Assembly (NCBI RefSeq): GCF_041886205.1
Contig: NZ_CP169030.1
Length of the DNA: 64,000 nucleotides
Source of the DNA: Escherichia coli
Lineage (GTDB): Bacteria > Pseudomonadota > Gammaproteobacteria > Enterobacterales > Enterobacteriaceae
Reading direction: 5' to 3' (one strand)
The translations under genes were made by a program, and so were the position numbers. The stretch's first letter is position 1; each line of letters opens with the position of its first letter. A model generated the notes under the pieces. The model searched no databases and was not told the origin of the DNA. It saw only the letters and a program-made list of their open reading frames with translations. Positions 24,741-54,261 of this stretch are shown here, one piece after another.

Positions 24741-25631
24741 TCAGGCTGCCAGATCATCGTTTCCGATGGAAGCATAATAAGCTTTTTCTGCTTCTGCCGG
24801 AGGAGTATGGCCCAGCCTTTCCAGCAATCGTCGATTGTTATACCAGTCCACCCACGTGAGTGTGGCCAGTTCCACTTCTGCACGGTTTTTCCAGCTCTTA
24901 CGGTGTATTACCTCCGCTTTGTAAAGACCATTGATGCTCTCCGCCATCGCGTTGTCATACGAGTCGCCTGTACTTCCTGTTGATGCCAGTAATCCGGCTT
25001 CCTTAAGCCGCTGTGTGTAGGCCAGCGATACATACTGAGAACCTTTATCACTGTGATGGACCGTGCCGGACGGTCGACGGGCCCATAACGCCTGCTCCAG
25101 TGCATCCAGCACGAATGTCGTTTCCATGGACGATGAGACCCGCCACCCCACGATGTATCCGGCAAACACATCAATGATGAACGCCACATAGACGAAGCCC
25201 CGCCATGTGCTGACGTAAGTAAAATCAGCCACCCACAGCTGGTCAGGTCGTTCTGCCACGAACTGACGGTTTACGCGGTCGCCTGCGGCAACGGCTTTCC
25301 GGCTGATGGTCGTACGGACCTTTTTACCCCGGAGAACACCGGCAAGTCCCATAACCGCCATGAGACGTGCCACAGTGCATCTGGCCACTCTGATACCTTC
25401 CCGTAACAACTGACGCCAGACTTTACGCACACCGTATACCTTGTGATTTTCATCGTATACGCGCTGTATCTCTTTCTTCAGCCAGTCATCGCGCTGCGCA
25501 CGGGCACTGCGTTTATCCGGATGATGTCGCTGTTGCTGACAGTGGTAATACGTTGACGGGGCAATATGCAGTTCGCTGCATAGCGGTCCGACCCCGTACT
25601 GCTCACGCAGCTTATCCAGCAGTGGCATCAT
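24741..25631 (-). CDS. IS3-family transposase OrfB (IS629-like)
   Basis: 296 aa DDE transposase. Confidence 0.8.
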
Positions 25632-25954
25632 TTTTTCCAGAGGCGGTCGAACTCCGCCTTCGCAAAATAAGCGGAAGCCTGGCGAAGGATATCGTTACTG
25701 CGGCGCAGTTCACGATTTTCACGTTCCAGCTCTTTCAGACGCTGACGTTCAGCGGTGGTGAGCCCTCCATCACCGCCCCCGGTATCCCGCTCATGCTGGC
25801 GAACCCAGACACGCAGAGTCTCCGGCGTACAGCCAATCTTTGGAGCAATGGAACAAATTGTCGCCCATTGTGAGTCATATTCGCTCTGACTTTCCAGAAC
25901 CATACGGACTGCCCGTTGACGGACTTCGGGGGAAAAACGAGTATTTTTAGTCAT
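25628..25954 (-). CDS. IS3-family transposase OrfA (IS629-like)
   Basis: 108 aa HTH protein [19 protein letters not shown]... Confidence 0.8.
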
Positions 25955-26897: not shown

Positions 26898-27313
26898 AAT
26901 ATCACCTGGTAAATATTATACCATTTTCATTTGATATGAATTTTCTTAAAATTGATATCAGCGAAGATTATAATTTTCGAGTGCGCAAAACCTGTCTGAT
27001 TTGTTAAACAACAAAAAGATTAAGGGTTTATTGGTATGAAATAAGAAAAAAACCTCCTTTGAATTCAAAGGAGGAGAAAAATAAGGCTTACTTCAAGTCA
27101 CCCCCACTATCAATGGAAGTTTCTTATTTATACATGTTCTTAATGTTAAATATGATGTGTAAATTCCTAAATTTAAATCTATTGCCCATTTTGGGGTAAA
27201 TTTCTTTGCTCGAGTAGGCAGCCTGACGGCTGCGGCTTGTCATGGTCTGCCATTACCGTTATAAAAATAAACAATGTCATTGCCTTTCAGGTGGTTAACT
27301 TCCCCGCTATGTC

Positions 27314-27646
27314 GTGAAGCTTCACAACGATGACTTCTTTGACGAAGAAGACGTAGAAGTTCTGCGCTTTGATAGTTTTGACGATGCAGTTGAGTGCTGC
27401 GCAGACCTGGGTATTCCGTTCTTTCTGGATGCAGGAAACAAAAAGCTGGTCTTCTGGTTTGTTCGTGTCGATGACGAAGGGTATCCGGAAATAGCCCGCT
27501 GTACGGAACGAGAGTTTGCGACCATTCTTGCCGGTATCAGCGCCGGCGGTATGTACTGCCAGGAATGCGGCACTGTTCACTGGCCGGATGGAGTTACCCC
27601 GCCTTCTGATGCTTCCCCGTTTTGCAGACATCTTGCAGCAGGGTAA
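27314..27646 (+). CDS. hypothetical protein (110 aa) upstream of IS91-family transposase fragments
   Basis: ORF only; acidic N-terminus; function unknown. Confidence 0.3.
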   Translation: MKLHNDDFFDEEDVEVLRFDSFDDAVECCADLGIPFFLDAGNKKLVFWFVRVDDEGYPEIARCTEREFATILAGISAGGMYCQECGTVHWPDGVTPPSDASPFCRHLAAG

Positions 27647-28680
27647 CCGCTGGCTTAACTGGCTGGAGAAGCAGCCGGAAGGGGCAGTGCGTCTGGTGGT
27701 GATTGAGTCAGTGACAAAAATCACGGCGTGCGGGATCACGCTGATGGGGTACACGCAGTGGTGCTGTTCATCACCGGACTGTTGCCACACCAAAAAGGGC
27801 TGCTTCCGGTGTAAAAGCCGTTCCTGCCCACACTGCGGAGTGAAGGCTGGCGCACAGTGGATACAGTATCTGCTGAGTCTGGTCCCCGACTGCCCGTGGC
27901 AGCATATTGTGTTCACACTTCCGTGCCAGTACTGGTCCCTGGTGTTCCACAACCGGTGGTTACTGGCAGAGATGAGCCGTATCGCAGCCGACGTGATCGC
28001 CAGACAGATGTGGAGCCGGGGATATTCACGGTAATCCACACCTGGGGACGTGACCAGCAGTGGTATCCGCATATCCATTTATCGACAACAGCCGGAGGCG
28101 TGACGTCGGCTCTGACCTGGAAAAACCTTCATTTTTACGCCCGTAAGGTGATGAGCATGTGGCGTTACCGGATAACGCGGTTGCTGTCACGGAAATACCC
28201 GGACCTGGTGGTACCGGATGAGCTGGCAGCAGAAGGAAGCAGCAGACGGGAATGGAATCACTTCCTGGACAGTCATTACCGCCGTGGCTGGAATGTCAAC
28301 GTCTCCAGGGGGATGGATAACGCCACACATGTGGCGGTGTACTTTGGCTCTTACCTGAAAAAACCGCCGGTTCTGATGAGCCGTCTGGAGCATTATGCCG
28401 GTCGGGATGAAATTGGTCTGCGTTACAACAGTCACCGGACAAAACGGGAAGAATACTTGGTGATGAGTGGCGATGAATTCATGGAAAGGTTCTCCTGGCA
28501 TGTGGCGGATAAGGGGTTCCGGATGGTGAGTACTACGGGTTCCTGAGTCCGGTGAAGCGCCGGTTGCTGGAAGAGGTGGTGTACGTCATAACGGAGACGG
28601 TGAGAAAAACGGTGAAACAAATCAGGTGGAGAGGGATGTATCAACGATTACTGAAGGTTGACCCGCTGAAGTGTGTGCTG
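27516..28680 (+). pseudogene. IS91-family (HUH rolling-circle) transposase, frameshifted and truncated by IS21
   Basis: Cys-rich zinc-binding segment (CKSRSCPHCG) and HUH-like segment (HTWGRDQQWYPHIHL) split over at least three frames. Confidence 0.5.
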
Positions 28681-28740: not shown

Positions 28741-30710
<1,970 letters not shown>

Positions 30711-30821
30711 GTTGATGTCCTTTCTGGTGTGGGAACCTTAAGGAAACAACATGTTGGGTGGAGCGGACAATCCAAATGGTGAATTACCGTCTTATATCAC
30801 TGGCGCTAACAGATCTGTAAT

Positions 30822-33004
30822 ATGAAGATACTGAGGCAGCTGTGGAACCAGAAAGGGCTTGATGCGGCAGTTGAAGATGTACCTGAGGATCGATACGGTT
30901 TCGGTAATATCGCAGAAAATATATCCCGTTCCATCCTTACTCTTCCTCTGGAGGCTTCAAATGTTGTCGGAATAGAAGGTGCATGGGGATCGGGTAAAAC
31001 AAGCCTCCTTAATCTGATCCTGAGAAACCTTGCCCTGAAAAAAGATGCTCACACGCATGTGCTGCATATTTCTCCCTGGCTGAGTGGTGGCAGTCCGGTT
31101 GAAGCGCTCTTTCTTCCGGTTGCCACGGTTATCCAGCAGGAAATGGAAATACGCTATCCCCCGAAGGGCTTCAAAAAGCTCTGGCGTAAATATCTGTTGT
31201 CACCGGAAGCTCAAAAAGTGATTGAGTATGCTCAGGATACTTCATCGCGCGTCCTTCCACTGGTTCAATATATCGGACAGTTTTCCAGCATTATTAACTG
31301 GATAGCAGGCGGAATAAAGGTATTTTCAGACAGCCGTCTGGCTGTTGATCAGAAAACCACGACAAAGCTTCGGGCTGAAATTGCAGGACAACTGGTGAGT
31401 CTGGATCTGAAGTTCATTGTTGTCATGGATGATCTGGACCGACTGGAGCCATCCCAGGTGGCGGAAGTGTTCAGGCTTGTGCGTGCAGTAGCCGATCTGC
31501 CCCGCTTTACCCATATTCTCTGTTATGACAGGCAGATTATCACTCATGCCGTTGAACATGCGCTGAATATCGAAGATGGCAGCCGTTATCTCCAGAAAAT
31601 CATTCAGCTTAGTTTTAAATTACCCCGACCTGAAGCCTTTGATTTACGTAATGAATTTCGCCAGCGGGCTGAGGCTCTATATCAGCAAATTAATAATCAA
31701 CCGCCAGACTCTGGAATGGTAAGGGATCTCATCGCGGTGACTGATACCTATGGTGCCGCACTTTCGACGCCACGGGAAATCCATCAGGCCATTAATTCCC
31801 TGATTTGTGCCTGCTTCAGCTTATACGGGTGACAAACCCGGCTCTGTATGACTGGACAGAGCATTACCTGACAGAACGGTCCGTGATTGAAACCGGTCAG
31901 GGTATGCTTTCTGACGGAGAGAAAGCAGACTTCCGGGAGGGGCTTATCAGATGTATGAAGACGTTCAGGGCATCAAATGCAGACTCGTTTCTGACACTTG
32001 CAGACTGGATCCCAGGTATCAGTGGACATAATGATGAATATCTGAATCTTTTTGAGCCCGTCAGTGAGGATTTTCGTCATATCCAGACGACCGGTAAACG
32101 ACTCAGCAGCCTGACGCACTGGCGATATTATTTTGCCTTCTCCTCACCACAGAATGTTCTGCCACCTGAATTCTTCAGACAGCTTTTTGAACAGGCTGGC
32201 GTATCGGAAAAACAGCAGCAGCTTTCTGAATTGCTGCTCTCAAAAATCAACAGTGTGGGCAGTCTGTCCGGAACCTGGTTTGAACATATACTGAGCAGAC
32301 TGACTCCAGGCCTGATAAGAGAACGTAATTTCGAAGAGTGCGCAGGACTGGTTCATTTTTTCTTCGATCACACCGATGAGGTGAGCACTCGCTTCAGTAT
32401 CCGTAACCCATGGTTTTCCCTGCGTGAAATGGCCATTAATGAGGTTGTACGGCATCTGCTGAAGCATATGCAGGATATTGATGAGACCAGAACGATCACG
32501 CTTATGGAAAAACTGATCGTTACGGGTGCTTCGCCGTTCTGGATAGCCGATTTTATGCGGGATCTTATCTGGGAACATGGACTTGCTCAGAATGCAGTAC
32601 CTTCGCCTTCAGACGCTCTTTTCAGTCGCGATATTACGGAACGGTTGCGTGACAGGTTTGCGGAACGTATGAATCAACCAGAACTTCAGCAACAGCTTCT
32701 CCTGCGCAAGTCTCTTCTCGGGTATCTCTACGCCTGGAGAGACATGAGTTCAGGTGAAACCGTGAAGCAATGGGTCAGAGAAGTTACTACCACTGATGAA
32801 GGCCTTGTTAACCTGTTGATACGATTACAGACCAGTGTCTTCAGCTCCCACCGAGGGGCATATCGCCGGATTGCGCGTGACCAGGTCAGTCCGTTCTTTG
32901 ATGACTGGCCAGCAGTCGAAGAGAAGTTGAAGGTTATGCTGTCCGGCAACGAGCTGACTCCGGAGCAGGAAGCGCTCAAAACAGCGCTGGAAAATGACGA
33001 CTGA
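30822..33004 (+). pseudogene. KAP-family P-loop NTPase, split by a frameshift near 31805-31832 (about 730 aa if repaired)
   Basis: Walker A GAWGSGKTS, Walker B FIVVMDDLDR and PREIHQAINSL motif in ORF 30822-31832; continuation in the next frame at 31805-33004; IS21 ends 10 bp upstream of the ATG. Confidence 0.6.
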
Positions 33005-33013
33005 CCAAAAATT

Positions 33014-33036
33014 AAGGCCGCTTAGCGGCCTTTTTC
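33014..33036. terminator. bidirectional terminator hairpin between convergent genes (AAGGCCGC-TTA-GCGGCCTT then T-run)
   Basis: Read directly. Confidence 0.5.
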
Positions 33037-33053
33037 TTACTAAATGAAGGAGA

Positions 33054-33953
33054 TCAGGCGCTTAATGCTTTATCCTTGTCAAAAGGAACACCGGCATACG
33101 CAAGCTCACTCAGCAGTTTGCGTTTCCATCCACCATGCTCATCAAGCTCGGTATAGAGAACCCCGGCAAGATCTGAAGGGATTTCGATATCTCCCTTCCT
33201 GAGTACAAGTACTTTCCCGCGTCCAAGCTTCCCGGCGAAATATCCGAGCTCATACAGGACATTCTGGCGTGCGCGGAGACGTGTGCTTTCAGATGCCAGA
33301 GCACTGCCGCTATCGTCGGGCGTCATCAGCACGATGGCAAAACTGACATCCCCTGACTCTGCTTCAAATTTCTCGATAATCGTCCTGGAGCCGTCAGGAC
33401 GTTCTGAAAGAATGATTTCCTCAAGACCTATCCGGGATATAAAACGGGCAACAGACTGAAGGGCATCATTATCATGGCCATGAACAATAAAAATTTTTCG
33501 GGAAACCGGCCGAAACACTGCAGGCTCAGGATCGTGTTGGTTTTCCACATACAACTGGTAATCGCGCACGAACGGGGCAACTAATGACGACGTGAATTTT
33601 CGAATGGATTCAATAATGTTTCGATCATAGAAAAATGTATGACAGAAATTAAAGGAAAAATTGTTATCGTCTGCCATTTTCTCGATCAGCAGCAACTTCA
33701 GGCCCAAAATATCAGCGGGCTCATCAGGCCACTGTAGAACAGCGGAACCAGCCATGCTGGATTCAGTATCTTCACTCCTGGCCAGAAAGGTATCAAGTTC
33801 AACATTGCGGGTCAGATGTGCATTAACTGACTGCAGATTCTCTGAGTTCAAGAGCCGGGCCAATTGCTTAAGAGGTTGCTGATAGTTCTGAACGTCAGCG
33901 CGCTGAAGGTCGAATACGCAATTTTTAAGTGACTGAAAGATATCAATTGCCAT
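33054..33953 (-). CDS. protein with C-terminal TIR-like (COG4271-type) domain and unknown N-terminal domain
   Basis: 299 aa; C-terminal KIFIVHGHD ... AIVLMTPDD ... RARQNVLYELGYFAGKLGRGKVLVL matches recalled hallmarks of the TIR-like domain found in CBASS/Pycsar-type effectors. Confidence 0.5.
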   Translation of the reverse strand: MAIDIFQSLKNCVFDLQRADVQNYQQPLKQLARLLNSENLQSVNAHLTRNVELDTFLARSEDTESSMAGSAVLQWPDEPADILGLKLLLIEKMADDNNFSFNFCHTFFYDRNIIESIRKFTSSLVAPFVRDYQLYVENQHDPEPAVFRPVSRKIFIVHGHDNDALQSVARFISRIGLEEIILSERPDGSRTIIEKFEAESGDVSFAIVLMTPDDSGSALASESTRLRARQNVLYELGYFAGKLGRGKVLVLRKGDIEIPSDLAGVLYTELDEHGGWKRKLLSELAYAGVPFDKDKALSA

Positions 33954-34233
33954 CCTGCCCGCTCTCCTGTCTTTGTTGTTCTGCTCTGTCCAGAATCTGT
34001 TGGCGCAGATTTTCTTTCATGTGTTCGATTAATGGGCTGACCATCGGATTAGTGGCATAACCAGAAGCGCGTTCGTACACCATGGAATAGGCTTCCTGAA
34101 TCGCGTTCTCAATGCTGACAGGATCGTTAGCATCGAAGTGGACATCATAACTTCCGTTTAATGCCTCTGTTGCTCTCTCAACCTCTTTTAGCTGTTTCTG
34201 CATTTTGTCTAAACCTGTGATTTTGACGCTCAT
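33943..34233 (-). CDS. small hypothetical protein (96 aa), translationally coupled to the TIR-like gene
   Basis: Stop overlaps downstream start by 11 nt; helical, charged; no recognisable domain. Confidence 0.4.
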   Translation of the reverse strand: MSVKITGLDKMQKQLKEVERATEALNGSYDVHFDANDPVSIENAIQEAYSMVYERASGYATNPMVSPLIEHMKENLRQQILDRAEQQRQESGQDGN

Positions 34234-34380
34234 AACAACCTCCGGACTAAGTGAGATGTATCAACCTTTATAGATAGCACGTTGGAGATGTGGGGTAAGG
34301 GATATCACTCAAATTCCATGTAATTTCATTAAGATCAGACTTAACCTTTTTTCGGATCTCAGATAAAAAAGAAAGAAATA

Positions 34381-34511
34381 GAGATATGCTAAACATATGC
34401 CTGGCATCTACATATGCTACCGCTATACATATGCCACACATCTGCCTATACTAAACATATGCACACACCCGGTGCTTTGAATATTCCGGATATGTTTCAC
34501 ATATCCATATG
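34381..34511 (+). promoter_or_regulatory. array of five or more direct ACATATGC-type repeats upstream of vapB (putative operator)
   Basis: ACATATGC at 34392, 34409, 34426, 34454 plus variants AGATATGC (34381) and CCATATGC (34504); read directly. Confidence 0.4.
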
Positions 34512-34528
34512 CTCGGGAGAGAAAAAAC

Positions 34529-34759
34529 ATGAGAACCGTATCGATATTTAAAAATGGCAACAACCGCGCCATCCGTCTGCCTCGTGATCTGGATTTTGAG
34601 GGGGTGAGCGAGCTCGAGATCGTCCGGGAAGGGGACAGCATCATCCTGCGCCCCGTCCGGCCAACCTGGGGATCATTCCTAGAGTACGAAAAAGCCGATC
34701 CAGATTTTATGGCGGAGCGCGAGGATGTTGTCAGCGACGAAGGGCGATTTAACCTGTGA
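34529..34759 (+). CDS. vapB: VapB-type antitoxin (AbrB/SpoVT fold)
   Basis: 76 aa; overlaps vapC start by 4 nt; resembles VagC/VapB of enterobacterial plasmids by recall. Confidence 0.8.
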   Translation: MRTVSIFKNGNNRAIRLPRDLDFEGVSELEIVREGDSIILRPVRPTWGSFLEYEKADPDFMAEREDVVSDEGRFNL

Positions 34760-35172
34760 ACAAGACTTATATGCTTGATACCTGTATCTGCTCGTTCATC
34801 ATGCGTGAACAGCCAGAAGCCGTCCTGAAGCGTCTGGAGCAGGCGGTGCTACGCGGCCACCGTATAGTGGTCTCGGCCATCACCTACTCTGAAATGCGCT
34901 TCGGGGCTACCGGCCCAAAGGCCTCACCACGTCACGTCCAACTGGTCGATGAATTCTGCGCCCGCCTCGATGCCATCCTGCCCTGGGATCGCGCCGCAGT
35001 AGACGCCACCACGAAGATTAAAGTGGCACTGCGGCTGGCCGGGACGCCGATCGGCCCGAACGACACGGCGATTGCCGGGCACGCCATCGCCGCCGGGGCG
35101 ATACTGGTAACGAATAATACAAGAGAATTTGAGCGAGTGCCTGACCTGGTGCTGGAAGACTGGGTGAAGTAA
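34756..35172 (+). CDS. vapC: VapC PIN-domain toxin
   Basis: 138 aa; N-terminal MLDTCI with acidic Asp typical of PIN domains. Confidence 0.8.
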   Translation: MNKTYMLDTCICSFIMREQPEAVLKRLEQAVLRGHRIVVSAITYSEMRFGATGPKASPRHVQLVDEFCARLDAILPWDRAAVDATTKIKVALRLAGTPIGPNDTAIAGHAIAAGAILVTNNTREFERVPDLVLEDWVK

Positions 35173-35210
35173 GACACTCTTTTCAAAGTCAGGAGATAAG
35201 GGCACCAAGA

Positions 35211-35235
35211 AACAGCCCGTATACGGGCTGTTTTA
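35211..35235. terminator. terminator hairpin after vapC (CAGCCCGTATACGGGCTG then TTTT)
   Basis: Read directly. Confidence 0.55.
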
Positions 35236-35333
35236 ACAGATATCTACAGTAAGCGGTCCTAAACTGTAGGGTATCTTCGAAGATCAGACTATCAGGGAGC
35301 TAAAGCCTATCTTCCGGCGGCAAAAACAGTGGC

Positions 35334-37472
35334 TCAAGCGATACGGGCAACCGAGCTCTGGTTTGCTGCCGGTGGCAGGGCGATGAGCTTGTCACATTCC
35401 ATAATCACGTACTCCGGGATGAGATCGAATCTGGACGGATCTAGTTGACAGATGAACTCATTTTCAATGTGGTACGTTTCGTTAACGAATTTTCGTATTA
35501 CCGGATGGTCCTGATCCAGTTCCAGTAAACGGAATACCTGCAGTTTTTCATAGCCGTTACGACAGCGACGGTACAGGTTTTTTATTTCATCTGGGCTGCT
35601 GACGAGAGCCTGAAGTCGCGGGTAATCAAAACTGTCCACATACTCCCGGATATCCCGCAAGGCCTGCTGAATTTTCTCAGGAGCCATTTTGGGATAGCCC
35701 GAGCCCGCAGCGGCAGGCTCGCGATAATCCAGCGGGACGACGCGTCGATGGAATAGATTGGATAGAAGCTGATAAGCATCACCACGTTCGTCAACGATTT
35801 CAAAGTAGCGACGAAGATAGATGAGCTTAATGATCTCCTCACAGTCTGCTGACGCGGTGATGGATTTGCAGATCTGCATGAATGTCATGATATCGCCGTC
35901 GTTAACAGGTAATTCTTCTATGACTCCAGCAGACAGGCGCAGGCAGGAGGCGGTCACCTGATTACTGAACAACCTTCTGACTGACTTCAGCGTGTCAATC
36001 ACAGGCTCCACGTCATGCGTCAGCATAAGTACAGTCCGGTTCTTCAGGCATTCACCACTTGCACGTCTGAACAGCATTTCAAGAATGGCAAACTTCTTGT
36101 TTTTATCAAAAGAAGATATGGGATCATCAAGGATAATCAGTCCCGGGTTTTTTGACAGGCATTCATACATGAATAACACAATCGCAAAGGCGTTCCGTTC
36201 TCCATAGCTGAGATGCTGGCTACCGCCGCTGACGTACCCGTCAAAATCTATGTGTCGTAGCCTGAGTTTTCTCTGCTCTCCCTCGCCGGCTATATCCACC
36301 CTGTATTTATAGCCTGCATAAGTGAGGAAATTATTGATGTTTGTTTTGTGCTGTGCGATCAGCCGGATCATGCTGTCCCGGTGCCGGTTAATTTTTCCCT
36401 GCAGCGGTCCGGCAAGGTTTATCAGGTCCATAAGGGCCGCGTTCAGTCTGTCGGTGATCCCCTGCATGAGTTCGGATTGCAGATCAGGGAAGAACTGCAG
36501 GTCAATCAACCTGGCAGTGAGCACCTCCCGAACGTTCTGCTGTTCCTGCAGGCTGAAAACATTCAGGCCTCTCAGCGCAGTGAGTTTCTCTGTCAGCGTA
36601 TCGGTCTGGCGTTTCAACGCCACTAGGTACTCGATATGTTCGGCTTCCGGACCGTTCTGAAGCATAGTAATGGCCAGAAGGCGTTCTCTGGCGCTCTCCG
36701 TCAGGTAATTACCGAGGTTTTCCACCAGTCTGATGATAGCGGTCAGGTTTTTAATGGTGGATTTATCGTATTCCTCTCTGACTTGGCGAATTTGTGCTTC
36801 CTTTCCCGTGATATCACCGGTACAGAACGGACAGCAGCCATCCGAAAGGGGCGAAAACTCGAGTCCCTTTGTCTGCCAGTCAATCCATTCCACGCGGCGT
36901 TCACTGCGGATGTAGGGTTGATAGTTCTCAAGACCAGCCGGAATGTGGTGTATTTTATTTCCGCCTGACAGACCTCTCATGCCGGTTGAAGAACGTGAAA
37001 TCCCGGAACTGGTTGATCTGAAAGCATTACTGAGTTCCTGTAGATGGTCTATCAGAGAGTTCAGCTCAGTGTGATCCGTGAAAACAGCCCGGATCTTTTG
37101 CGTCATTTCTTCTATTTCACGCTCTCTTTCCGCATGGGCTTGATTGCGGATAAGAATATTAAAGCTATCACTGATGAGCTCGTCCGGTTGGAACGTAAAC
37201 TGACTGACGTACTCCTCGTTGAAGCACATCACGTCCCCAATCCCGTCAGCACCGATGACAATGGGCCCGGTGCTATCGGGGTTTTCTCCGCGCAGCCGGA
37301 AGGGTATCAGTGCCTGTAGTCCCTGAATGTCGTCCCGCGCCGCACAGCTTATGGCCCGTGACAGCGTACTTTTTCCAGTACCATTTGGCGCAAACTTAAT
37401 GTTCAGTTTATCGGCAGTGAGGGTGATATGTGCTCGTACGATGTTATTGCAGTGGCGTATTTCAATGTCCAT
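35334..37472 (-). CDS. RloC/Rad50-like ABC ATPase with CxxC motif in the inter-lobe insert and an uncharacterised C-terminal domain
   Basis: 712 aa; Walker A APNGTGKST near N-terminus; CCPFCTG about residue 213; signature-like LSYGERN, Walker B LIILDDPISSFD and H-loop LTHD about residues 415-480; roughly 230 aa beyond the ATPase. Confidence 0.55.
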   Translation of the reverse strand: MDIEIRHCNNIVRAHITLTADKLNIKFAPNGTGKSTLSRAISCAARDDIQGLQALIPFRLRGENPDSTGPIVIGADGIGDVMCFNEEYVSQFTFQPDELISDSFNILIRNQAHAEREREIEEMTQKIRAVFTDHTELNSLIDHLQELSNAFRSTSSGISRSSTGMRGLSGGNKIHHIPAGLENYQPYIRSERRVEWIDWQTKGLEFSPLSDGCCPFCTGDITGKEAQIRQVREEYDKSTIKNLTAIIRLVENLGNYLTESARERLLAITMLQNGPEAEHIEYLVALKRQTDTLTEKLTALRGLNVFSLQEQQNVREVLTARLIDLQFFPDLQSELMQGITDRLNAALMDLINLAGPLQGKINRHRDSMIRLIAQHKTNINNFLTYAGYKYRVDIAGEGEQRKLRLRHIDFDGYVSGGSQHLSYGERNAFAIVLFMYECLSKNPGLIILDDPISSFDKNKKFAILEMLFRRASGECLKNRTVLMLTHDVEPVIDTLKSVRRLFSNQVTASCLRLSAGVIEELPVNDGDIMTFMQICKSITASADCEEIIKLIYLRRYFEIVDERGDAYQLLSNLFHRRVVPLDYREPAAAGSGYPKMAPEKIQQALRDIREYVDSFDYPRLQALVSSPDEIKNLYRRCRNGYEKLQVFRLLELDQDHPVIRKFVNETYHIENEFICQLDPSRFDLIPEYVIMECDKLIALPPAANQSSVARIA

Positions 37473-37825: not shown

Positions 37826-38083
37826 ATGGATCAGGAAATGACGTTTTCACTCAGCTATGAACAACTGACCCGGTTTGCGGAACGACGCATCCGGGAATGC
37901 AATCTGGACAGCCAGGGCGCGATTTATCTCTGCGAGTCAGCCAAAGCCGGAGCCGTGCTGATCTTCTGGCATGAACTGGCCATAAATGGCTATGCCTCAA
38001 TGAATGCCATAAAGAGACAGGAGCTCATTGACGCCGACTTTCAGCGCCTCAGAAAGCTCATCTGGCCGGAGGATGACAGGTAA
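37826..38083 (+). CDS. hypothetical protein (85 aa)
   Basis: ORF; stop overlaps next start. Confidence 0.35.
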   Translation: MDQEMTFSLSYEQLTRFAERRIRECNLDSQGAIYLCESAKAGAVLIFWHELAINGYASMNAIKRQELIDADFQRLRKLIWPEDDR

Positions 38084-38673
38084 TGACCCAGAGCCGCCGA
38101 CCGTCGCCACTGCAGCGGAGAGTGCTGATTGTGCTGGCTGCCCTTGATGAAAAACGGCCAGGACCCGTGCTGACGCGGGACATAGAACGGGTGCTGGAGC
38201 GAAGCGGGGAAGCCCCGGTCTACGGGCCAAACCTGCGCGCCTCCTGCCGTCGTCTGGAGGATGCCGGCTGGCTGCGTACCCTGCGCGCTCCGAACCTGCA
38301 GCTGGCAGTGGAGCTGACGGACGCCGGCCGGGCCGTGGCACAGCCTCTGCTGCTGGCAGAACAGGACCGCCTCCGGGCAGAACAGCGTGCGGCAGAAGTC
38401 GTCGTACTGCCGCTGGTCCCGGCAGCAGGTCTGCACGCAGACGGCACTTCTGCCACTGATCTGGCGGTGGAGCTGAACGGCATAACGTATCAGGCCTGCC
38501 GTGGGGATTTTGTGGTGCGTCTCGACGGCAGCACCTGTCTGCAGTTATGGAATAAAGAAGGCAGAGTGGTACGCCGGGAGGGCGATCCGCTGGAAGTGGC
38601 GCAGTGGCTGCAGGCCTGTCATGATGCCGGAATAGAAGTTCGTGTACAGGTTAATGAAAGCGTCACTCCGTAA
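38083..38673 (+). CDS. hypothetical protein with N-terminal winged-helix-like segment (196 aa)
   Basis: ORF in GC-rich plasmid backbone; domain guess only. Confidence 0.35.
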   Translation: MTQSRRPSPLQRRVLIVLAALDEKRPGPVLTRDIERVLERSGEAPVYGPNLRASCRRLEDAGWLRTLRAPNLQLAVELTDAGRAVAQPLLLAEQDRLRAEQRAAEVVVLPLVPAAGLHADGTSATDLAVELNGITYQACRGDFVVRLDGSTCLQLWNKEGRVVRREGDPLEVAQWLQACHDAGIEVRVQVNESVTP

Positions 38674-38690
38674 AAACATGCCAGCACGGT

Positions 38691-39038
38691 TTACACGTCA
38701 TCCCATGATGGCAGCCGGTTAACTTTCCTGCGCCACCAGTGGAAAGAGGCCATGAGCAGTCCGAACAAAAAACCACCCGTGATACTTATAATAATGGCCT
38801 CACCTGCCACCATTCCTGACGGCCTCCAGTAGATAAACCACATTGCACATCCCCAGGAAATGCCCCATAAGCCCCCCGTCAGCACCGTGACCTGCCAGAA
38901 CGGCATAAAGGGTAATGGCGGAAGCCGGATACCCAGCCGCCAGAGAATACGCAGAAGAGGAGGGGCATAATTGCTCCGCCACATCTTTTTGCTGTCCATC
39001 AGGGCAATGGCCCGGGCTTTTTTCTGCTCAAAGGTCAC
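38691..39038 (-). CDS. hypothetical membrane protein (115 aa)
   Basis: Two hydrophobic helices; Trp/Arg-rich. Confidence 0.35.
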   Translation of the reverse strand: MTFEQKKARAIALMDSKKMWRSNYAPPLLRILWRLGIRLPPLPFMPFWQVTVLTGGLWGISWGCAMWFIYWRPSGMVAGEAIIISITGGFLFGLLMASFHWWRRKVNRLPSWDDV

Positions 39039-39166: not shown

Positions 39167-39502
39167 ATGAACAGAAAATATTATTTTAATAATATGTGGT
39201 GGGGATGGGTGACGGGGGGATATATGCTGTATATGTCATGGGATTATGATTTTAAATACAGATTACTGTTCTGGTGTATTTCTCTCTGCGGAATGGTTTT
39301 GTATCCGGTTGCAAAATGGTATATTGAAGATACAGCTCTGAAATTTACCCGGCCTGATTTCTGGAACAGCGGTTTTTTTGCTGATACACCTGGAAAAATG
39401 GGATTGCTTGCTGTTTATACGGGTACTGTTTTCATATTATCTCTTCCGTTAAGTATGATATATATTCTTTCTGTTATTATAAAAAGGCTGTCTGTAAGAT
39501 AG
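39167..39502 (+). CDS. iia: colicin Ia immunity protein
   Basis: 111-aa membrane protein matching my recollection of colicin Ia immunity (MNRKYYFNNMWWGWVTGGYMLYMSWDY...); convergent with colicin remnant. Confidence 0.8.
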   Translation: MNRKYYFNNMWWGWVTGGYMLYMSWDYDFKYRLLFWCISLCGMVLYPVAKWYIEDTALKFTRPDFWNSGFFADTPGKMGLLAVYTGTVFILSLPLSMIYILSVIIKRLSVR

Positions 39503-40810: not shown

Positions 40811-41086
40811 CTACCTGTTTTCTCGTGTGTGCCACAGGCGCAATACATAAATAGTCTGGCCATTAAGTTCGTAACGGATTTCGTACTCGCCAGCAAAAAT
40901 CCGTCTGACCTCCCTGGGTTCAAACTGAAACAACTGTTCTCCCATACGTGGATGAGTTAACAGAATGACCGGTGCCTGTGTCAGGGATTGCACCGTTCTG
41001 GCGGCCGCAGGTTTACTGGCCAGCACCAGAAAATCATATAACCGCGCCAAATCAGAAAGCGCCTTACTGGTCCACTTCAGTTCCAT
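40811..41086 (-). CDS. ParE/RelE-family toxin
   Basis: 91 aa; C-terminal YVLRLWHTRE typical of ParE/RelE fold. Confidence 0.7.
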   Translation of the reverse strand: MELKWTSKALSDLARLYDFLVLASKPAAARTVQSLTQAPVILLTHPRMGEQLFQFEPREVRRIFAGEYEIRYELNGQTIYVLRLWHTRENR

Positions 41087-41370
41087 CAGCGTGGCACCGG
41101 TAACGGATTGTCAGTACTGAGGCTGTCCGCCCAGGCCTGTACAGCCTGATGGTCGATAACCTGTCCGGATGTCACATCGTCCAGGGCTTCCAGCGTCAGG
41201 CGATTACGCTCCTCCTCCTGGGCAAGCCATGCAGAAAGCGCCTGTTTGATAACCCAGCCCCGGGAGCGTTCCAGCCTGGCGGCCATCTGGTCGACTTTAT
41301 CAGCCATAGGTAATGGCACATGCGCGGTAATGACTTTTGTTGCTTGTGCACTATTGTTTTTCATTTGCAT
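41086..41370 (-). CDS. ribbon-helix-helix antitoxin (ParD/CopG-like)
   Basis: 94 aa; overlaps toxin start by 1 nt. Confidence 0.65.
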   Translation of the reverse strand: MQMKNNSAQATKVITAHVPLPMADKVDQMAARLERSRGWVIKQALSAWLAQEEERNRLTLEALDDVTSGQVIDHQAVQAWADSLSTDNPLPVPR

Positions 41371-41755: not shown

Positions 41756-43333
41756 TTATCCTCGTTTTTCCCAAAACTGTTTTGCCAGTTCGCTCAGAGC
41801 GCTAGTTAACTGAGCGACAGATTTCGCACTTTGCAAATTATTCTGCCCGGTCTGTACATTGGTATCAGCAGCATCGCGTATATTGATAATACTGCGGTTT
41901 ATGTCTTCACTTACTGCTCCCTGCTGCTCGACCGCAGTCGCTATTTGCGCGTTCATGTCGGTAATTTCGTTAACGCGTTGGCCAATTCCATCAAGAGCTG
42001 TAGCTGCTTCCTCTGCGTGAGCTACACTCGTGTGCGCTTGCCGACTACTTTGCTCCATGACTGTAACAGCGGATTGCGCTCGCTCTTGTAGAGCGCTGAT
42101 CATGCTTTGAATATCCGTTGTCGATTGCTGTGTGCGAGCAGCAAGACTGCGAACCTCATCGGCGACAACAGCAAAACCACGCCCCTGCTCACCAGCACGC
42201 GCGGCCTCAATTGCTGCGTTGAGTGCCAACAAATTCGTTTGCTCGGCGATCCCTCGTATAACGTCAAGAACTTTTGATATCTCGTTACTTTGACCTTCAA
42301 GCTCATGAATAACCTGAGTGGCTTGCCTAATTTCACCTTCAAGGGCAGTGATTGACTGGCTTGTGTGGGCTACCAGACGCTGGCCAGATGCCGTCTCAGT
42401 GTCTGCTCTTCCGGCCGCATCTGCAGCATGCTGTGCATTGCTCGCAACCTCTTGAATGCTTGCCACCATTTGGTTTACTGCCGTTGCTATTTGATCTGTC
42501 TCTGCCTGCTGCTCAACTGTAAGTACATTGCTTGACTCAATATCCTTTAGTAGGCCTCGGGTGTGTTCGCTAAGCCGATTTGATGCATCACCTATGCGAC
42601 CTACTATGGCGCCTGTTTCAGCTTGCATCATTCGTAAAGCAAACTCTATTTGGCCAAACTCATCGGTGCGCCCAGTGTAGAGGGATTGACTTAATGGGTT
42701 ATTGGAAATATTCTTGGCTCTTTCAACCAGTCTTCCAAGAGGAGAGAGAATAGCCAAAACACTAACAGAGCTTAAGCTTCCTGACATTAAAGTGGCTAAC
42801 AATAAGCTGCTTATTGATGTATCAGTAAGCATGCCGGCAGCCATTGCGCTTGATATAATACTACCCCATATGAGCAAGAGTATTTTCACGGAAAAGCTAG
42901 CAGCCAATTTCGGCCTCGCGGCCTTCCCGCTTCTCAATTGAGCATATAATTTTTCCGCAGCCAAAACCTGCTCAGGTTCAGGCTTGGTCCTTACAGACTG
43001 GTATTCAACAATCGAACCATTCTTAGCTATTGGCGTTACATAAGCACTTACCCAATAGTGGTCGCCATTTTTACAGCGATTTTTTACTAGCCCCATCCAT
43101 GAGCGGCCAGATTTTAATGTACTCCACATATGCTCAAATGCAGCAGGCGGCATATCTGGGTGTCTTACGATGTTGTGAGGCTGGCCTAATAGTTCTTCCT
43201 CAGTGAAACCACTGATTTTAATGAAGTCAGGATTAACGTACGTGATATGGCTTTGAGGGGAGGTAGTCGAAAGAATATTGGCATCTTTTGGGAGTTCTAA
43301 GTTTCGACCCGTCACTGGTAAATTCTGGCGCAT
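41756..43333 (-). CDS. methyl-accepting chemotaxis protein with PAS domain (Tn1721 orfI-like)
   Basis: 525 aa; PAS-like N-terminus, transmembrane segments, MCP signalling domain. Confidence 0.8.
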
Positions 43334-47617: not shown

Positions 47618-48256
47618 GTGACGGGTGAAAAGGTGCTGATCGGCTACATGCGGGTATCGAAGGCGGACGGATCCCAGTCCACCAATTTGCAACGCGATGC
47701 GCTCATCGCCGCTGGTGTGAGCCTTGCGCACCTTTACGAGGATCTGGCCTCGGGCAGGCGCGATGATCGCCCAGGGTTGGCTGCTTGCCTGAAGGCGCTT
47801 CGTGAAGGGGACACGCTGATCGTGTGGAAGCTCGATCGGCTTGGCCGTGATCTGCGCCACCTGATCAACACCGTGCACGACCTAACTGCGCGTAGCGTGG
47901 GCCTGAAGGTCCTGACCGGTCACGGTGCGGCGGTCGACACGACGACTGCCGCCGGCAAGCTTGTGTTCGGTATTTTTGCCGCGCTGGCCGAGTTCGAGCG
48001 TGAGTTGATTTCCGAGCGAACAGTCGCTGGACTTATCTCGGCGCGCGCTCGCGGCAGGAAAGGGGGGCGCCCCTTCAAGATGACCGCCGCCAAGCTACGC
48101 CTGGCGATGGCCAGCATGGGGCAACCGGAAACCAAGGTGGGCGATCTCTGCGAAGAACTCGGGATTACCCGGCAGACGCTCTACCGGCACGTGTCGCCCA
48201 AGGGCGAACTGCGGCCAGACGGCGTAAAGCTGCTCTCCCTCGGTTCAGCCGCATAA
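47618..48256 (+). CDS. tniR: TniR (TniC) serine resolvase
   Basis: 212 aa; N-terminal LIGYMRVSKADGSQ serine-recombinase motif. Confidence 0.8.
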   Translation: MTGEKVLIGYMRVSKADGSQSTNLQRDALIAAGVSLAHLYEDLASGRRDDRPGLAACLKALREGDTLIVWKLDRLGRDLRHLINTVHDLTARSVGLKVLTGHGAAVDTTTAAGKLVFGIFAALAEFERELISERTVAGLISARARGRKGGRPFKMTAAKLRLAMASMGQPETKVGDLCEELGITRQTLYRHVSPKGELRPDGVKLLSLGSAA

Positions 48257-48460: not shown

Positions 48461-48793
48461 TTAGTGAACACTTGCCTTAGATAGCAAGTTGAGCACAGCA
48501 ACGCCGCTGATAATGAAGCCGACACCAACAAATCCCCACATATCTAGTTTTTGACCATGCAAAACCCATGCAATCGCAGTGACCAAGACGATCCCGAGGC
48601 CCGACCAAACTGCGTAGGCGATTCCAACAGGAATCGATTTGAGTGTCAGCGACAGGAAATAAAAAGCAGCAGCGTATCCCGCTACGACGATAAAAGACGG
48701 TACTAACCTAGTAAAGCCCTCACTAGACTTGAGCGCAGAGGTTGCAATGACCTCAAAAATAATGGCCGTAGCCAGAAATAACCAATTTTTCAA
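48461..48793 (-). CDS. qac: SMR-family quaternary-ammonium efflux protein on a gene cassette (qacE-related, full length)
   Basis: 110 aa (TTG start) immediately downstream of attI1; intact SMR C-terminus ...[10 protein letters not shown] rather than the qacEdelta1 tail. Confidence 0.75.
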
Positions 48794-48895
48794 AATATTT
48801 CTCCATGGAGTTCCGCGAAGAAATTTTAGGTTCGATTTAAGAAAAAAAACAGTCTTGTTGCTGGCCGAAATTTGTGCGCACAGCAAAGCATCTAA

Positions 48896-48960
48896 CTTTG
48901 TTTTAGGGCGACTGCCCTGCTGCGTAACATCGTTGCTGCTCCATAACATCAAACATCGAC
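48896..48960 (-). promoter_or_regulatory. attI1 integron recombination site (copy 1, intact)
   Basis: GCCCTAAAACAAAG|TTA junction read on minus strand at 48893-48909. Confidence 0.65.
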
Positions 48961-49031
48961 CCACGGCGTAACGCGCTTGCTGCTTGGATGCCCGAGGCAT
49001 AGACTGTACAAAAAAACAGTCATAACAAGCC

Positions 49032-50045
49032 ATGAAAACCGCCACTGCGCCGTTACCACCGCTGCGTTCGGTCAAGGTTCTGGACCAGTTGCGTGAGCGC
49101 ATACGCTACTTGCATTACAGTTTACGAACCGAACAGGCTTATGTCCACTGGGTTCGTGCCTTCATCCGTTTCCACGGTGTGCGTCACCCGGCAACCTTGG
49201 GCAGCAGCGAAGTCGAGGCATTTCTGTCCTGGCTGGCGAACGAGCGCAAGGTTTCGGTCTCCACGCATCGTCAGGCATTGGCGGCCTTGCTGTTCTTCTA
49301 CGGCAAGGTGCTGTGCACGGATCTGCCCTGGCTTCAGGAGATCGGAAGACCTCGGCCGTCGCGGCGCTTGCCGGTGGTGCTGACCCCGGATGAAGTGGTT
49401 CGCATCCTCGGTTTTCTGGAAGGCGAGCATCGTTTGTTCGCCCAGCTTCTGTATGGAACGGGCATGCGGATCAGTGAGGGTTTGCAACTGCGGGTCAAGG
49501 ATCTGGATTTCGATCACGGCACGATCATCGTGCGGGAGGGCAAGGGCTCCAAGGATCGGGCCTTGATGTTACCCGAGAGCTTGGCACCCAGCCTGCGCGA
49601 GCAGCTGTCGCGTGCACGGGCATGGTGGCTGAAGGACCAGGCCGAGGGCCGCAGCGGCGTTGCGCTTCCCGACGCCCTTGAGCGGAAGTATCCGCGCGCC
49701 GGGCATTCCTGGCCGTGGTTCTGGGTTTTTGCGCAGCACACGCATTCGACCGATCCACGGAGCGGTGTCGTGCGTCGCCATCACATGTATGACCAGACCT
49801 TTCAGCGCGCCTTCAAACGTGCCGTAGAACAAGCAGGCATCACGAAGCCCGCCACACCGCACACCCTCCGCCACTCGTTCGCGACGGCCTTGCTCCGCAG
49901 CGGTTACGACATTCGAACCGTGCAGGATCTGCTCGGCCATTCCGACGTCTCTACGACGATGATTTACACGCATGTGCTGAAAGTTGGCGGTGCCGGAGTG
50001 CGCTCACCGCTTGATGCGCTGCCGCCCCTCACTAGTGAGAGGTAG
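49032..50045 (+). CDS. intI1: class 1 integron integrase IntI1 (copy 1)
   Basis: 337 aa; matches recalled IntI1 sequence. Confidence 0.95.
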
Positions 50046-50968: not shown

Positions 50969-52888
50969 CTAAGTTATTTTATTGAACATATATCGTACTT
51001 TATCTATCCGACTATTTGGACGACGGGGCTGGCAAACAGGTTCACCGGTAGTAACATGGTACCCTTTTAACTCTGTTAAACAAACACTACGTCCATTTGT
51101 AAAGAAAGTTAAATCACTACGATATTCTTGAATACACCGAGCAGGGATTTCTCCACTAAGAATGACCTCATTATTTTTCAATTGAGTGTCTACGATGTTC
51201 GCACAATATTTAGGAGCATCGTTGTATGCTCGTGAAAGATATTCCTGTGGCGCATAAATTTTAAAACTAAGATATGGCTCTAACAATTCTGTTCCAGCTT
51301 TTTTTAAGACTTGTTCCAATACAATAGGAGCAAGCATCCGAAAATCTGCTGGGGTACTAACAGGGCTATAGTATAAGCCATACTTAAAACAGATTTTACA
51401 GTCCGTCACATTCCAACCATACAATCCTTGTTCACAGCCATAGCGTATCCCTTCCATAACTGCATTTTGAAATGATTGATTTAAGTATCCAAGAGAAACC
51501 GAGCTCTCATACTGCATTCCACTTCCCAACGGAAGCGGTGATACAGATAAACCAATGGAAGCCCAGAAAGGATTTGGCGGCACTTCGATGTGAATGGTAT
51601 ATTCTGCATTTTTTAACGGTCTCTCCATATAAATGACTGTAGGCTCTTTTAGTTCTATCTCCACATGATACTTTTCTTGCAACAGTGCACTAATCACTTC
51701 CATTTGTACTTTCCCTAAGAAAGAAAGTATAATTTCATGTGTCGTAGAATCCACGTAATATCGTAGAAGCGGATCACTATCTGAGATTTCCAAAAGGGCA
51801 TCAAGCAACATTTCTCTCTGTTCAGGTTTACTCGGTTCAACAGTTGTTTGTAGTAGAGGGTGCGGATTTTCAATCTTTTTTCTCTGTGGCAATAGTTTTG
51901 TATCTCCAAGAACACTATTTAACTTCAAAAACTCATTTTGCAAAATAACAATTTCCCCGGAATAAGCCTTATCGATTTTACATAATTCACCATTTATTGA
52001 AGTATACATTTCTGTAATTTTTATTTTTTCCTTTTCCGATATTCTAACCGAATCTCGCAAATGCAGTACGCCACTATAAAGACGTATATATGCAAGACGT
52101 TGTCTTTTTTTTGTATATTCAATTTTGAAAACATTTCCGCAAAGTTCAGACTGACCTCGATGTGTTGATGAATAAAATTTATTCGTAATCACTTCTATAA
52201 GGTTATCAATCCCTATATTGTTTTTTGCACTTCCATGATAAAGAGGGAACAGAGAACAATTCTGAAATCTTATGCTTTCCTCTTGTTCGAGTTCCAATGC
52301 TTCTAATGATTTACCGGACATATATTTCTCTAAAAGGTCATCGTTTCCCTCTATTACCGTATCCCATTGTTCAGATTCGGTAAAGTTCGTCACACACATA
52401 TTAGGATACAGTTCTACCTTCTGTTTGATTACAATTTCGGCAGAAAGTTTCTCTTTAATATCCTGATAAACCGTTGATAAATCAATTCCATTTTGGTCAA
52501 TCTTATTGATAAAAAAGATTGTGGGAATCCCCATTTTCCTAAGTGCATGAAATAATATACGAGTTTGTGCTTGTACGCCATCTTTTGCAGAAATCAGTAG
52601 AATTGCCCCATCTAAAACTGATAATGAACGATATACTTCTGCTAAGAAATCCATATGTCCTGGCGTGTCTATGATGTTCACCTTCGTATTTTCCCACTGA
52701 AAAGAGGTTATTCCTGTCTGAATTGTAATTCCTCTCTGACGTTCTAAAAGCGTATTATCCGTCCTCGTTGTACCTTTGTCCACGCTTCCTAATTCTGTAA
52801 TCGCTCCACTGTTATATAATAAGCTTTCTGTTAAGGTAGTTTTTCCCGCATCAACATGAGCTAAAACTCCAATATTAATAATTTTCAT
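50969..52888 (-). CDS. tet(M): Tet(M) ribosomal-protection tetracycline resistance protein
   Basis: 639 aa from [39 protein letters not shown]...; translational GTPase fold; very close to recalled Tet(M). Confidence 0.95.
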
Positions 52889-52903
52889 GTGATTTTCCTC
52901 CAT

Positions 52904-53247: not shown

Positions 53248-54261
53248 ATGAAAACCGCCACTGCGCCGTTACCACCGCTGCGTTCGGTCAAGGTTCTGGA
53301 CCAGTTGCGTGAGCGCATACGCTACTTGCATTACAGCTTACGAACCGAACAGGCTTATGTCCACTGGGTTCGTGCCTTCATCCGTTTCCACGGTGTGCGT
53401 CACCCGGCAACCTTGGGCAGCAGCGAAGTCGAGGCATTTCTGTCCTGGCTGGCGAACGAGCGCAAGGTTTCGGTCTCCACGCATCGTCAGGCATTGGCGG
53501 CCTTGCTGTTCTTCTACGGCAAGGTGCTGTGCACGGATCTGCCCTGGCTTCAGGAGATCGGAAGACCTCGGCCGTCGCGGCGCTTGCCGGTGGTGCTGAC
53601 CCCGGATGAAGTGGTTCGCATCCTCGGTTTTCTGGAAGGCGAGCATCGTTTGTTCGCCCAGCTTCTGTATGGAACGGGCATGCGGATCAGTGAGGGTTTG
53701 CAACTGCGGGTCAAGGATCTGGATTTCGATCACGGCACGATCATCGTGCGGGAGGGCAAGGGCTCCAAGGATCGGGCCTTGATGTTACCCGAGAGCTTGG
53801 CACCCAGCCTGCGCGAGCAGCTGTCGCGTGCACGGGCATGGTGGCTGAAGGACCAGGCCGAGGGCCGCAGCGGCGTTGCGCTTCCCGACGCCCTTGAGCG
53901 GAAGTATCCGCGCGCCGGGCATTCCTGGCCGTGGTTCTGGGTTTTTGCGCAGCACACGCATTCGACCGATCCACGGAGCGGTGTCGTGCGTCGCCATCAC
54001 ATGTATGACCAGACCTTTCAGCGCGCCTTCAAACGTGCCGTAGAACAAGCAGGCATCACGAAGCCCGCCACACCGCACACCCTCCGCCACTCGTTCGCGA
54101 CGGCCTTGCTCCGCAGCGGTTACGACATTCGAACCGTGCAGGATCTGCTCGGCCATTCCGACGTCTCTACGACGATGATTTACACGCATGTGCTGAAAGT
54201 TGGCGGTGCCGGAGTGCGCTCACCGCTTGATGCGCTGCCGCCCCTCACTAGTGAGAGGTAG
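53248..54261 (+). CDS. intI1: class 1 integron integrase IntI1 (copy 2)
   Basis: Identical 337-aa translation to copy 1; at least one silent nucleotide difference (49121 T vs 53337 C). Confidence 0.95.

Follow-up and report, generated by a model that had tools for sequence, protein, structure and literature searches.

Two inherited blocks of defence- and toxin-type genes in the pif region of an F-like Escherichia coli plasmid

The stretch of DNA analysed here (in the following, the window) comprises 64,000 nucleotides of contig NZ_CP169030.1 of Escherichia coli (assembly GCF_041886205.1) and contains at positions 30812-37472 a compact gene cluster, which the original prediction described as a defence-island-like assemblage of four unrelated immunity- or toxin-type modules: a KAP NTPase, a TIR-like pair, a VapBC toxin-antitoxin (TA) pair and a RloC-like ATPase. 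All four modules are found within these 6.7 kb, as the listing of open reading frames (ORFs) and the family scans agree, with E-values far past chance, and the RefSeq annotation already names them as KAP NTPase, TIR domain protein, VapBC and AAA ATPase. Many F-like plasmids of E. coli, Salmonella and Klebsiella contain the region at an identity of 99.9-100%. From left to right, the cluster and its borders are organized as follows:

28741-30811, minus strand: insertion sequence (IS) IS21, composed of istB (28741-29541), istA (29538-30710) and terminal sequence, forming the left boundary
30822-33004, plus strand: pifA, very probably a pseudogene, in two ORFs (PADLOC PifA)
31792-31806, no strand: deletion junction within pifA, located by BLAST offsets and sequence comparison
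33014-33032, no strand: bidirectional terminator-like hairpin between pifA and the TIR gene (stem of 8 bp, 6 of them GC; T-rich tails on either strand)
33054-33953, minus strand: gene of a TIR protein of 299 amino acids (aa) (Pfam PF10137, PADLOC PDC-S35)
33943-34233, minus strand: yuaX, 96 aa (BLASTP to neighbours labelled PF27363)
34234-34528, no strand: intergenic region from which yuaX and vapB diverge, containing several imperfect inverted repeats
34529-35172, plus strand: vapBC, with vapB at 34529-34759 and vapC at 34756-35172 (NCBIfam)
35210-35233, no strand: perfect 24-nt palindrome (AAACAGCCCGTA/TACGGGCTGTTT) between vapC and the ATPase gene
35334-37472, minus strand: gene of an ATPase of 712 aa (PADLOC PDC-S06, model PDLC04889)
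37826-38673, plus strand: two conserved hypothetical genes of 85 aa and 196 aa in the right flank, divergent from the ATPase gene

Concerning the distribution of these genes, matches to each query were counted among the 72,556 plasmids of PLSDB if they covered at least 80% of it. The whole cluster is present in 188 of them, as well as in 146 of 5,426 complete E. coli genomes, almost always on plasmids. The query of pifA together with yuaX/TIR (block A) is matched in 875 plasmids, F included, and that of yuaX/TIR alone in 893; for vapBC together with the ATPase gene (block B) the number is 649, and for the ATPase gene alone 660. Since 875 of the 893 plasmids with the TIR pair hold pifA and 649 of the 660 with the ATPase gene hold vapBC, the cluster consists of two blocks and not, as predicted, of four unrelated units. 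Comparison of gene content among related plasmids, which had been proposed as a check, confirms that the genes are accessory and are gained and lost, the two blocks separately from each other: F carries pifC-pifA-yuaX/TIR without vapBC or the ATPase gene, and many plasmids possess only vapBC and the ATPase gene. They are not fixed core genes of related replicons, and annotation tools do not assign them to non-defence functions.

The linkage within each block is best explained by descent. Klebsiella virulence plasmids contain pifA-yuaX/TIR at around 87% identity in a different neighbourhood, and the position of pifA next to yuaX-TIR is best seen as a result of shared ancestry. In one Klebsiella plasmid, vapBC flanks the other end of the ATPase gene, and vapBC was not found beside distant homologues of the ATPase; a functional tie between the two was therefore rejected in favour of common inheritance.

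The region has the properties of a defence island, with three defence or candidate units and one TA pair in 6.7 kb, a content that varies among relatives, and IS elements that both flank and invade it. PADLOC recognizes PifA as a known system and PDC-S35 and PDC-S06 as candidate systems, and the fourth module is a type II TA pair. In NZ_CP074368.1, NZ_CP178668.1 and NZ_AP038231.1, ISEc23, IS903B or an IS21-family element has inserted into an otherwise identical cluster, such that erosion of the region by IS elements is recurrent. In the closest relative, pJNU-p1 (NZ_CP083264.1), a retron-associated AAA ATPase and an HNH endonuclease are encoded at 20188-22175, around 5 kb past the cluster; because of this retron-type pair, the same plasmid region seems to collect further defence systems elsewhere.

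On sensing the phage protein gp1.2 or the capsid protein gp10, PifA, a KAP NTPase associated with the membrane, aborts infection by phages of the T7 type. The KAP NTPase of the window is the pifA of the F plasmid, encoding a KAP-family P-loop NTPase, such that the family was predicted correctly, but the gene is split by a frameshift. The PADLOC PifA model (720 positions) is covered at positions 2-314 by the ORF at 30822-31832 (E 2e-138) and at positions 329-718 by the ORF at 31805-33004 itself (E 7e-136). Save for a 43-bp deletion and one base mismatch, the sequence is that of the F allele (WP_000698737.1), which is annotated in F, pO83_CORR and pJNU-p1 and is present in hundreds of other plasmids. 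The deletion lies between short imperfect direct repeats (core TTCCCTGATTT), of which a single copy is left. Past residue 328 the reading frame is lost, translation stops at 31832, the 399 codons that remain are situated in another frame, and the intact frame of 741 aa is absent. A 91-nt probe across the junction was compared with the PLSDB plasmids and the complete E. coli genomes and matched 301 plasmids and 273 genomes, the best-ranked matches in both searches being composed of two pieces spanning 134 bp, i.e., the undeleted form. The deleted form, which would have headed the ranking as a single piece of 100% identity, was found in no other of these 301 plasmids and 273 genomes.

The upstream part of the pif operon is affected as well. 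In F and pO83_CORR, pifA is preceded by pifC, which encodes a repressor. In an alignment to the pifC-pifA junction of pO83_CORR, similarity begins around 10 nt before the ATG of pifA, where IS21 ends; pifC and the pif promoter and operator are gone from the window, and IS21 is found in their place. The same IS21-pifA junction exists in a few relatives, e.g., in pJNU-p1 (NZ_CP083264, with annotated IS21 istA/istB). Compared with the PifA of F, encoded in a pifC-pifA operon and responsible for abortive exclusion of T7 and T3, the window thus contains the same gene outside the deletion, whereas the 43-bp deletion is unique to it and IS21 replaces pifC together with operator and promoter. With its frame shifted by the deletion and with pifC and the promoter lost to IS21, pifA is very probably non-functional here, provided that the deletion is real and no assembly error, and exclusion of T7 and T3 by this copy is predicted to be lost.

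The second component of block A is the TIR gene with yuaX directly upstream, which overlaps it by 11 nt, the two forming a two-gene operon. The TIR protein possesses a TIR domain of the CAP12/PycTIR type (Pfam PF10137, E 7.9e-37, residues 153-271), which matches five PDC-S35 models of PADLOC (PDLC05005 with E 2.3e-65 at residues 145-295). A conserved N-terminal domain (around residues 1-145) precedes it, and no sensor domain was detected in these 145 aa by Pfam, NCBIfam or PADLOC. The NCBIfam model of Cap12 reaches 42 and 36 bits on the protein at a cut-off of 450. The motif R-x-N-V-x-[FY]-E-[FL]-G is conserved between the TIR protein and the solved Cap12 (9lmq, 7un8) and PycTIR (8jsj). Within it, E235 is invariant in 19 diverse homologues and aligns to the glutamate of the FEFG or LEFG sequence in the Cap12 and PycTIR chains; we take a glutamate of this kind to be the catalytic residue of TIR NADases.

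With the NADase effectors Cap12 (the TIR-STING of CBASS) and PycTIR (of Pycsar), the protein of the window therefore has the TIR subfamily PF10137 and the motif glutamate in common. There are also differences: a STING or cyclic-nucleotide (cNMP)-binding domain was not found in the protein, nor a CD-NTase or cyclase gene at the locus, and the protein possesses its own N-terminal domain of 145 aa and YuaX as a partner. Full-length homologues sharing around 50% identity occur widely in Proteobacteria (E 1e-5, more than 5,500 clusters), and the TIR protein of the window is 100% identical to a widespread allele (cluster of 783 member sequences).

A Pfam scan of the 96-aa protein of the window gave nothing significant, and its assignment as YuaX is based on the precomputed PF27363 labels of homologous neighbours and on pairwise BLASTP, with 44% identity to the partner in Vibrio and 43% to that in Pseudomonas, both labelled PF27363 and both encoded directly upstream of TIR homologues. 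In Pseudomonas (within a prophage), in Vibrio and in Agrobacterium (beside OLD/UvrD Gabija-like genes), the small PF27363 gene always abuts or overlaps the TIR gene upstream, and no KAP NTPase is encoded near the pair in these three loci. A search of the literature on yuaX, pifB and the three protein accessions yielded nothing relevant. In the sequences compared, the TIR protein thus has in YuaX a partner conserved across Proteobacteria, with which it forms a two-gene unit; this is the one small new point concerning this pair. PADLOC treats PDC-S35 as a single-gene candidate, whereas the window and the distant taxa examined always pair the protein with YuaX; since this partner is present in the window, Pseudomonas, Vibrio and Agrobacterium, PDC-S35 looks like a two-gene unit.

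Block B begins with vapBC, in which the gene of an AbrB/SpoVT-type antitoxin is followed, with an overlap of 4 nt, by that of a PIN-domain toxin, i.e., the arrangement of a type II TA system. VapB scores 95.5 bits with NF040493 (TA_anti_VapB) of NCBIfam at a cut-off of 60. VapC matches two models of tRNA(fMet)-specific endonucleases with E 2e-35 and 3.5e-30; its scores of 122 and 104.6 remain under the respective equivalog cut-offs of 140 and 143. In gene order, sizes and the 4-nt overlap, the pair equals plasmid TA systems of the VapBC/MvpAT type with their tRNA-fMet-cleaving PIN toxins, but differs from them in that VapC stays under both equivalog cut-offs and in that the allele is accompanied by the ATPase gene in 649 plasmids. 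At an identity of at least 99%, the vapBC allele of the window is found in 734 PLSDB plasmids, more distant alleles occurring in thousands. The DNA of yuaX and vapBC is 100% identical to that of the closest plasmids.

The ATPase of block B is matched by PADLOC model PDLC04889 over residues 1-698 of its 712 (E 8.5e-286), Pfam AAA_13 giving partial matches at the ATPase motifs only. Homologues of around 55% identity over the full length occur across very distant phyla (more than 3,600 clusters), and the protein of the window is 100% identical to a widespread allele (cluster of 1,587 member sequences). In an alignment of 30 sequences, the Walker A motif G30-T-G-K-S34, the signature L420-S-x-G-E424, the Walker B/D-loop residues D448-D449 and the H-loop residue H485 are invariant, as is a hook motif C213-P214-x-C216 (CPFC) in a coiled-coil insert. 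The AlphaFold model (pLDDT 79) places this CPxC beside an apical loop of low confidence, flanked by long helices at around 110-200 and 221-385, and Foldseek with the model retrieves SMC/Rad50 heads. A sequence search of the PDB returned only ABC transporter heads.

The C-terminal helical domain of the ATPase (around residues 500-700) exhibits invariant residues R553, R554, E557 and Y666-H667-x-E-N-E, and H574 is present in at least 90% of the sequences. Searched alone with PADLOC at E-values up to 10, the domain matched its own model only and gave no PrrC signal; a PrrC match of the whole protein (E 3.5e-4) is confined to the ATPase signature region. A profile of the domain produced 523 matches among 1.84 billion proteins, and all that were checked belonged to the family of around 700 aa or were fragments of it, none being PrrC-like. 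The ATPase is therefore not counted as a demonstrated member of the RloC/PrrC family. A canonical Rx4-6H motif is not evident in the domain, which is family-specific and weakly HEPN-like; a divergent HEPN RNase is plausible.

The description of the ATPase as RloC-like thus stands for the ABC head, the coiled coil and the CxxC hook, whereas the nuclease domain is not demonstrably alike. RloC is defined by its ATPase and zinc-hook architecture and possesses an R-x3-E...H triad in a C-terminal anticodon-nuclease domain homologous to that of PrrC (PMC2610378). An N-terminal ABC head, a coiled coil with a CxxC apex and a C-terminal helical effector domain are shared by both proteins, and R553-x3-E557 together with the conserved histidines recalls the triad of RloC and PrrC, although there is no sequence match to PrrC. 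PrrC measures around 400 aa, has no coiled coil and is situated in a type Ic hsd locus, whereas the ATPase of the window measures 712 aa, contains the coiled-coil insert and has no hsd genes at its locus. ABC-HEPN fusions beyond PrrC and RloC were described by Anantharaman et al. (PMC3710099), and the fusions of the PrrC/RloC/APECO1_4465 group have the same single-polypeptide layout as the ATPase. Overall, the protein is RloC-like in architecture and probably also in logic. A homologue of 55% identity in a Desulfobulbaceae genome (GCA_020444465.1, 1-7100) overlaps by 4 nt the end of an operon of a methyltransferase and a ResIII helicase/restriction gene, followed by an integrase gene; this context embedded in restriction-modification (R-M) genes is like that of PrrC and of some RloC genes. 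The PDC families, to which both this protein and the TIR protein belong, are 145 candidates predicted from their location inside loci of BREX, DISARM or type I R-M systems (Payne et al., 10.1101/2024.01.29.577857).

Concerning transcription, pifA and the TIR gene as well as vapC and the ATPase gene are convergent, and the hairpins expected between them exist in the form of the hairpin at 33014-33032 and the palindrome at 35210-35233. The latter was missed by the stricter T-run rule that picked the former, and is probably a bidirectional terminator. Promoters and operators of yuaX and vapB are presumably located in the divergent intergenic region at 34234-34528. Rfam detected no RNA families inside the cluster.

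As to the borders, IS21 directly abuts the cluster on the left, as predicted, but the right side is no core plasmid backbone. Left of IS21, an IS91-family transposase fragment (27287-28640; NCBIfam E 1e-38, partial) follows immediately, and an Rfam ALIL pseudoknot, a frameshift element of the IS3 family, is located at 25557-25673, such that remnants of IS elements are piled up in the left flank. On the right, the two hypothetical genes, to which neither PADLOC, NCBIfam nor further scans assigned a family, recur in pO83_CORR (WP_000343085/WP_000194575) and in pJNU-p1 (WP_000371891/WP_000194578). Near 38767, the synteny with the closest plasmids is broken, and an orphan gene of the colicin-immunity type and IS903 come next. 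The orphan gene (39167-39502, plus strand) encodes a 111-aa protein of the Microcin/colicin E1 immunity family (Pfam E 4.5e-7) without a colicin gene alongside; for a 115-aa membrane-like protein encoded next to it at 38691-39038 (minus strand), the sole match is a PHROG of unknown function (E 6e-39). Beyond IS903, the minus strand contains at 40811-41370 the gene of a 91-aa ParE toxin (PF05016, E 8e-17) with an abutting upstream partner of 94 aa, a fifth toxin-type module.

Further to the right, a methyl-accepting chemotaxis gene with a PAS domain (41756-43333) is followed up to 48256 by a DDE transposase-like ORF of 571 aa, overlapping ORFs and a serine recombinase gene (47618-48256). We take these transposition genes, to which NCBIfam gave weak or no matches, to be a tni module of the Tn402/Tn5053 type. 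A qac SMR gene is situated at 48461-49102, with an Rfam match to the attI/AAC_AAD leader at 48871-48942, and between 48461 and 54261 two intI1 genes of identical score (49032-50045 and 53248-54261) flank tet(M) (50969-52903), an unusual arrangement in which intI1 is duplicated around a gene of ribosomal protection. The order towards the right is thus hypothetical genes, synteny break, immunity-type gene, IS903, ParDE-like pair, chemoreceptor gene, tni module, intI1-tet(M)-intI1 and a Tn3-family transposase gene. The cluster had been thought to lie adjacent to resistance transposons and perhaps to travel with them; this does not hold, as the distance amounts to around 6 kb to the tni module and around 11 kb to the first resistance gene, with IS903, the ParDE-like pair and the chemoreceptor gene in between. 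The cluster and its left flank recur in the closest plasmids, whereas the resistance region does not. Because these relatives keep the cluster without it, the cluster is linked to resistance through the replicon alone and is situated outside the resistance transposons.

Taken together, we regard the region, with a probability of roughly 80%, as an accessory pif-side segment of an F-like (IncFIB/FIC-type) plasmid, a mosaic of two inherited blocks whose products are of the abortive-infection or toxin type. An intact PifA would abort T7-type infection, with the copy of the window predicted to be inactive. The TIR protein would most likely act as an NAD+-consuming effector like the TIR domains of Cap12 and PycTIR, and YuaX, the N-terminal domain of the TIR protein, or both, may restrain it until a trigger appears. 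VapBC would serve as an addiction module with a PIN toxin. The ATPase would most likely work like RloC, its Rad50-like head and zinc-hook coiled coil sensing a DNA or nucleotide signal, which could free an effector activity of the C-terminal part, possibly that of a divergent HEPN-type RNase. The cluster as a whole would ride on the conjugative plasmid and not on the resistance transposons. That yuaX-TIR (as a two-gene NAD+-depleting unit of abortive-infection or TA type, in which the TIR effector has a sensor domain of its own at the N-terminus and YuaX as a small partner, without a nucleotide second messenger), the ATPase (as a RloC analogue with an unclassified C-terminal nuclease domain), or both, represent new defence mechanisms is a tentative suggestion, at somewhat less than even odds.

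Several points weigh against a role of the segment in defence. VapBC is classically a plasmid-maintenance module, and PADLOC gave no match on the pair of the window. For PDC-S06 and PDC-S35, no phage-defence phenotype is described in the papers found. The BASEL phages were isolated on hosts with an F plasmid from which pifA had been deleted (PMC11990801); since yuaX-TIR is still part of the F sequence, many coliphages are not stopped by the pair under these conditions, which is an indirect point. Finally, in a passage of PMC12632615 a view is quoted according to which phage restriction is perhaps not the primary function of PifA.

As an alternative, the cluster would serve mainly plasmid maintenance and competition among plasmids, VapBC and perhaps YuaX-TIR killing plasmid-free segregants, and the ATPase and PifA acting on incoming DNA or on other plasmid functions. 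We consider this unlikely, but it is the strongest of the alternatives. In F, block A has as neighbours ccdAB, the gene of a site-specific integrase and the maintenance genes RepFIA/SopAB, and the overlap of a small with a large gene in yuaX-TIR recalls type II TA operons; VapBC as a classical addiction module outside PADLOC and the quoted doubt about PifA fit as well. However, exclusion of T7 by PifA is experimentally established, and PifA is still in use as a defence gene in current phage studies (PMC11990801). Homologues of the TIR pair in a prophage and beside Gabija-like genes, and that of the ATPase in an R-M-like operon, are moreover in typical defence contexts, and the PDC families were defined by such embedding in BREX, DISARM or R-M loci (10.1101/2024.01.29.577857).

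That the cluster is, in the plasmid of the window, a decaying cargo with little or no present function, kept between mobile elements on a successful replicon, is an improbable explanation. While the frameshifted pifA with its lost promoter, the insertions of ISEc23, IS903B and IS21-family elements inside the cluster of relatives, and the synteny break at around 38767 beside the orphan immunity-type gene and IS903 are in line with decay, all ORFs from yuaX-TIR to the ATPase gene are intact, the terminator hairpins persist, both the TIR protein and the ATPase match widespread alleles at 100% identity, and the DNA of yuaX and vapBC does not differ from that of the closest plasmids. Least probable is a single three-gene system of pifA and yuaX-TIR, with the TIR pair, e.g., as back-up or co-effector of PifA, which their adjacency in 875 of 893 plasmids with the TIR pair, including the Klebsiella lineage at around 87% nucleotide identity, would suggest, but which was rejected as the preferred explanation, since distant homologues of the pair (Pseudomonas, Vibrio, Agrobacterium) have no KAP NTPase as neighbour, pifA and the TIR gene are convergent with a terminator between them, the pair of the window is intact while pifA is broken, and pifA alone is reported to suffice for T7 exclusion.

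As an accessory segment of an F-like plasmid, the cluster is real, ordinary, and already sequenced and catalogued, PifA being classical and the PDC families published candidates; new details are the unique lesion of pifA, the two-block structure and the conserved partner YuaX. F-type resistance plasmids carry phage-defence and addiction genes together with antibiotic resistance, such that pressure by phages and by antibiotics can co-select the replicon; for IncF plasmids, a link between resistance genes and defence systems has already been reported (10.1101/2025.07.25.666796). Annotation by name only would overcount defence in this plasmid, in which the sole validated gene, pifA, is very probably dead, and the units of exchange are blocks of two modules and not single genes. 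YuaX-TIR (PDC-S35), which is present even on the laboratory F plasmid, and the ATPase (PDC-S06) are very common plasmid genes still at the level of candidates; if one of them does represent a new mechanism, this would add a very widespread family to the known defence systems.

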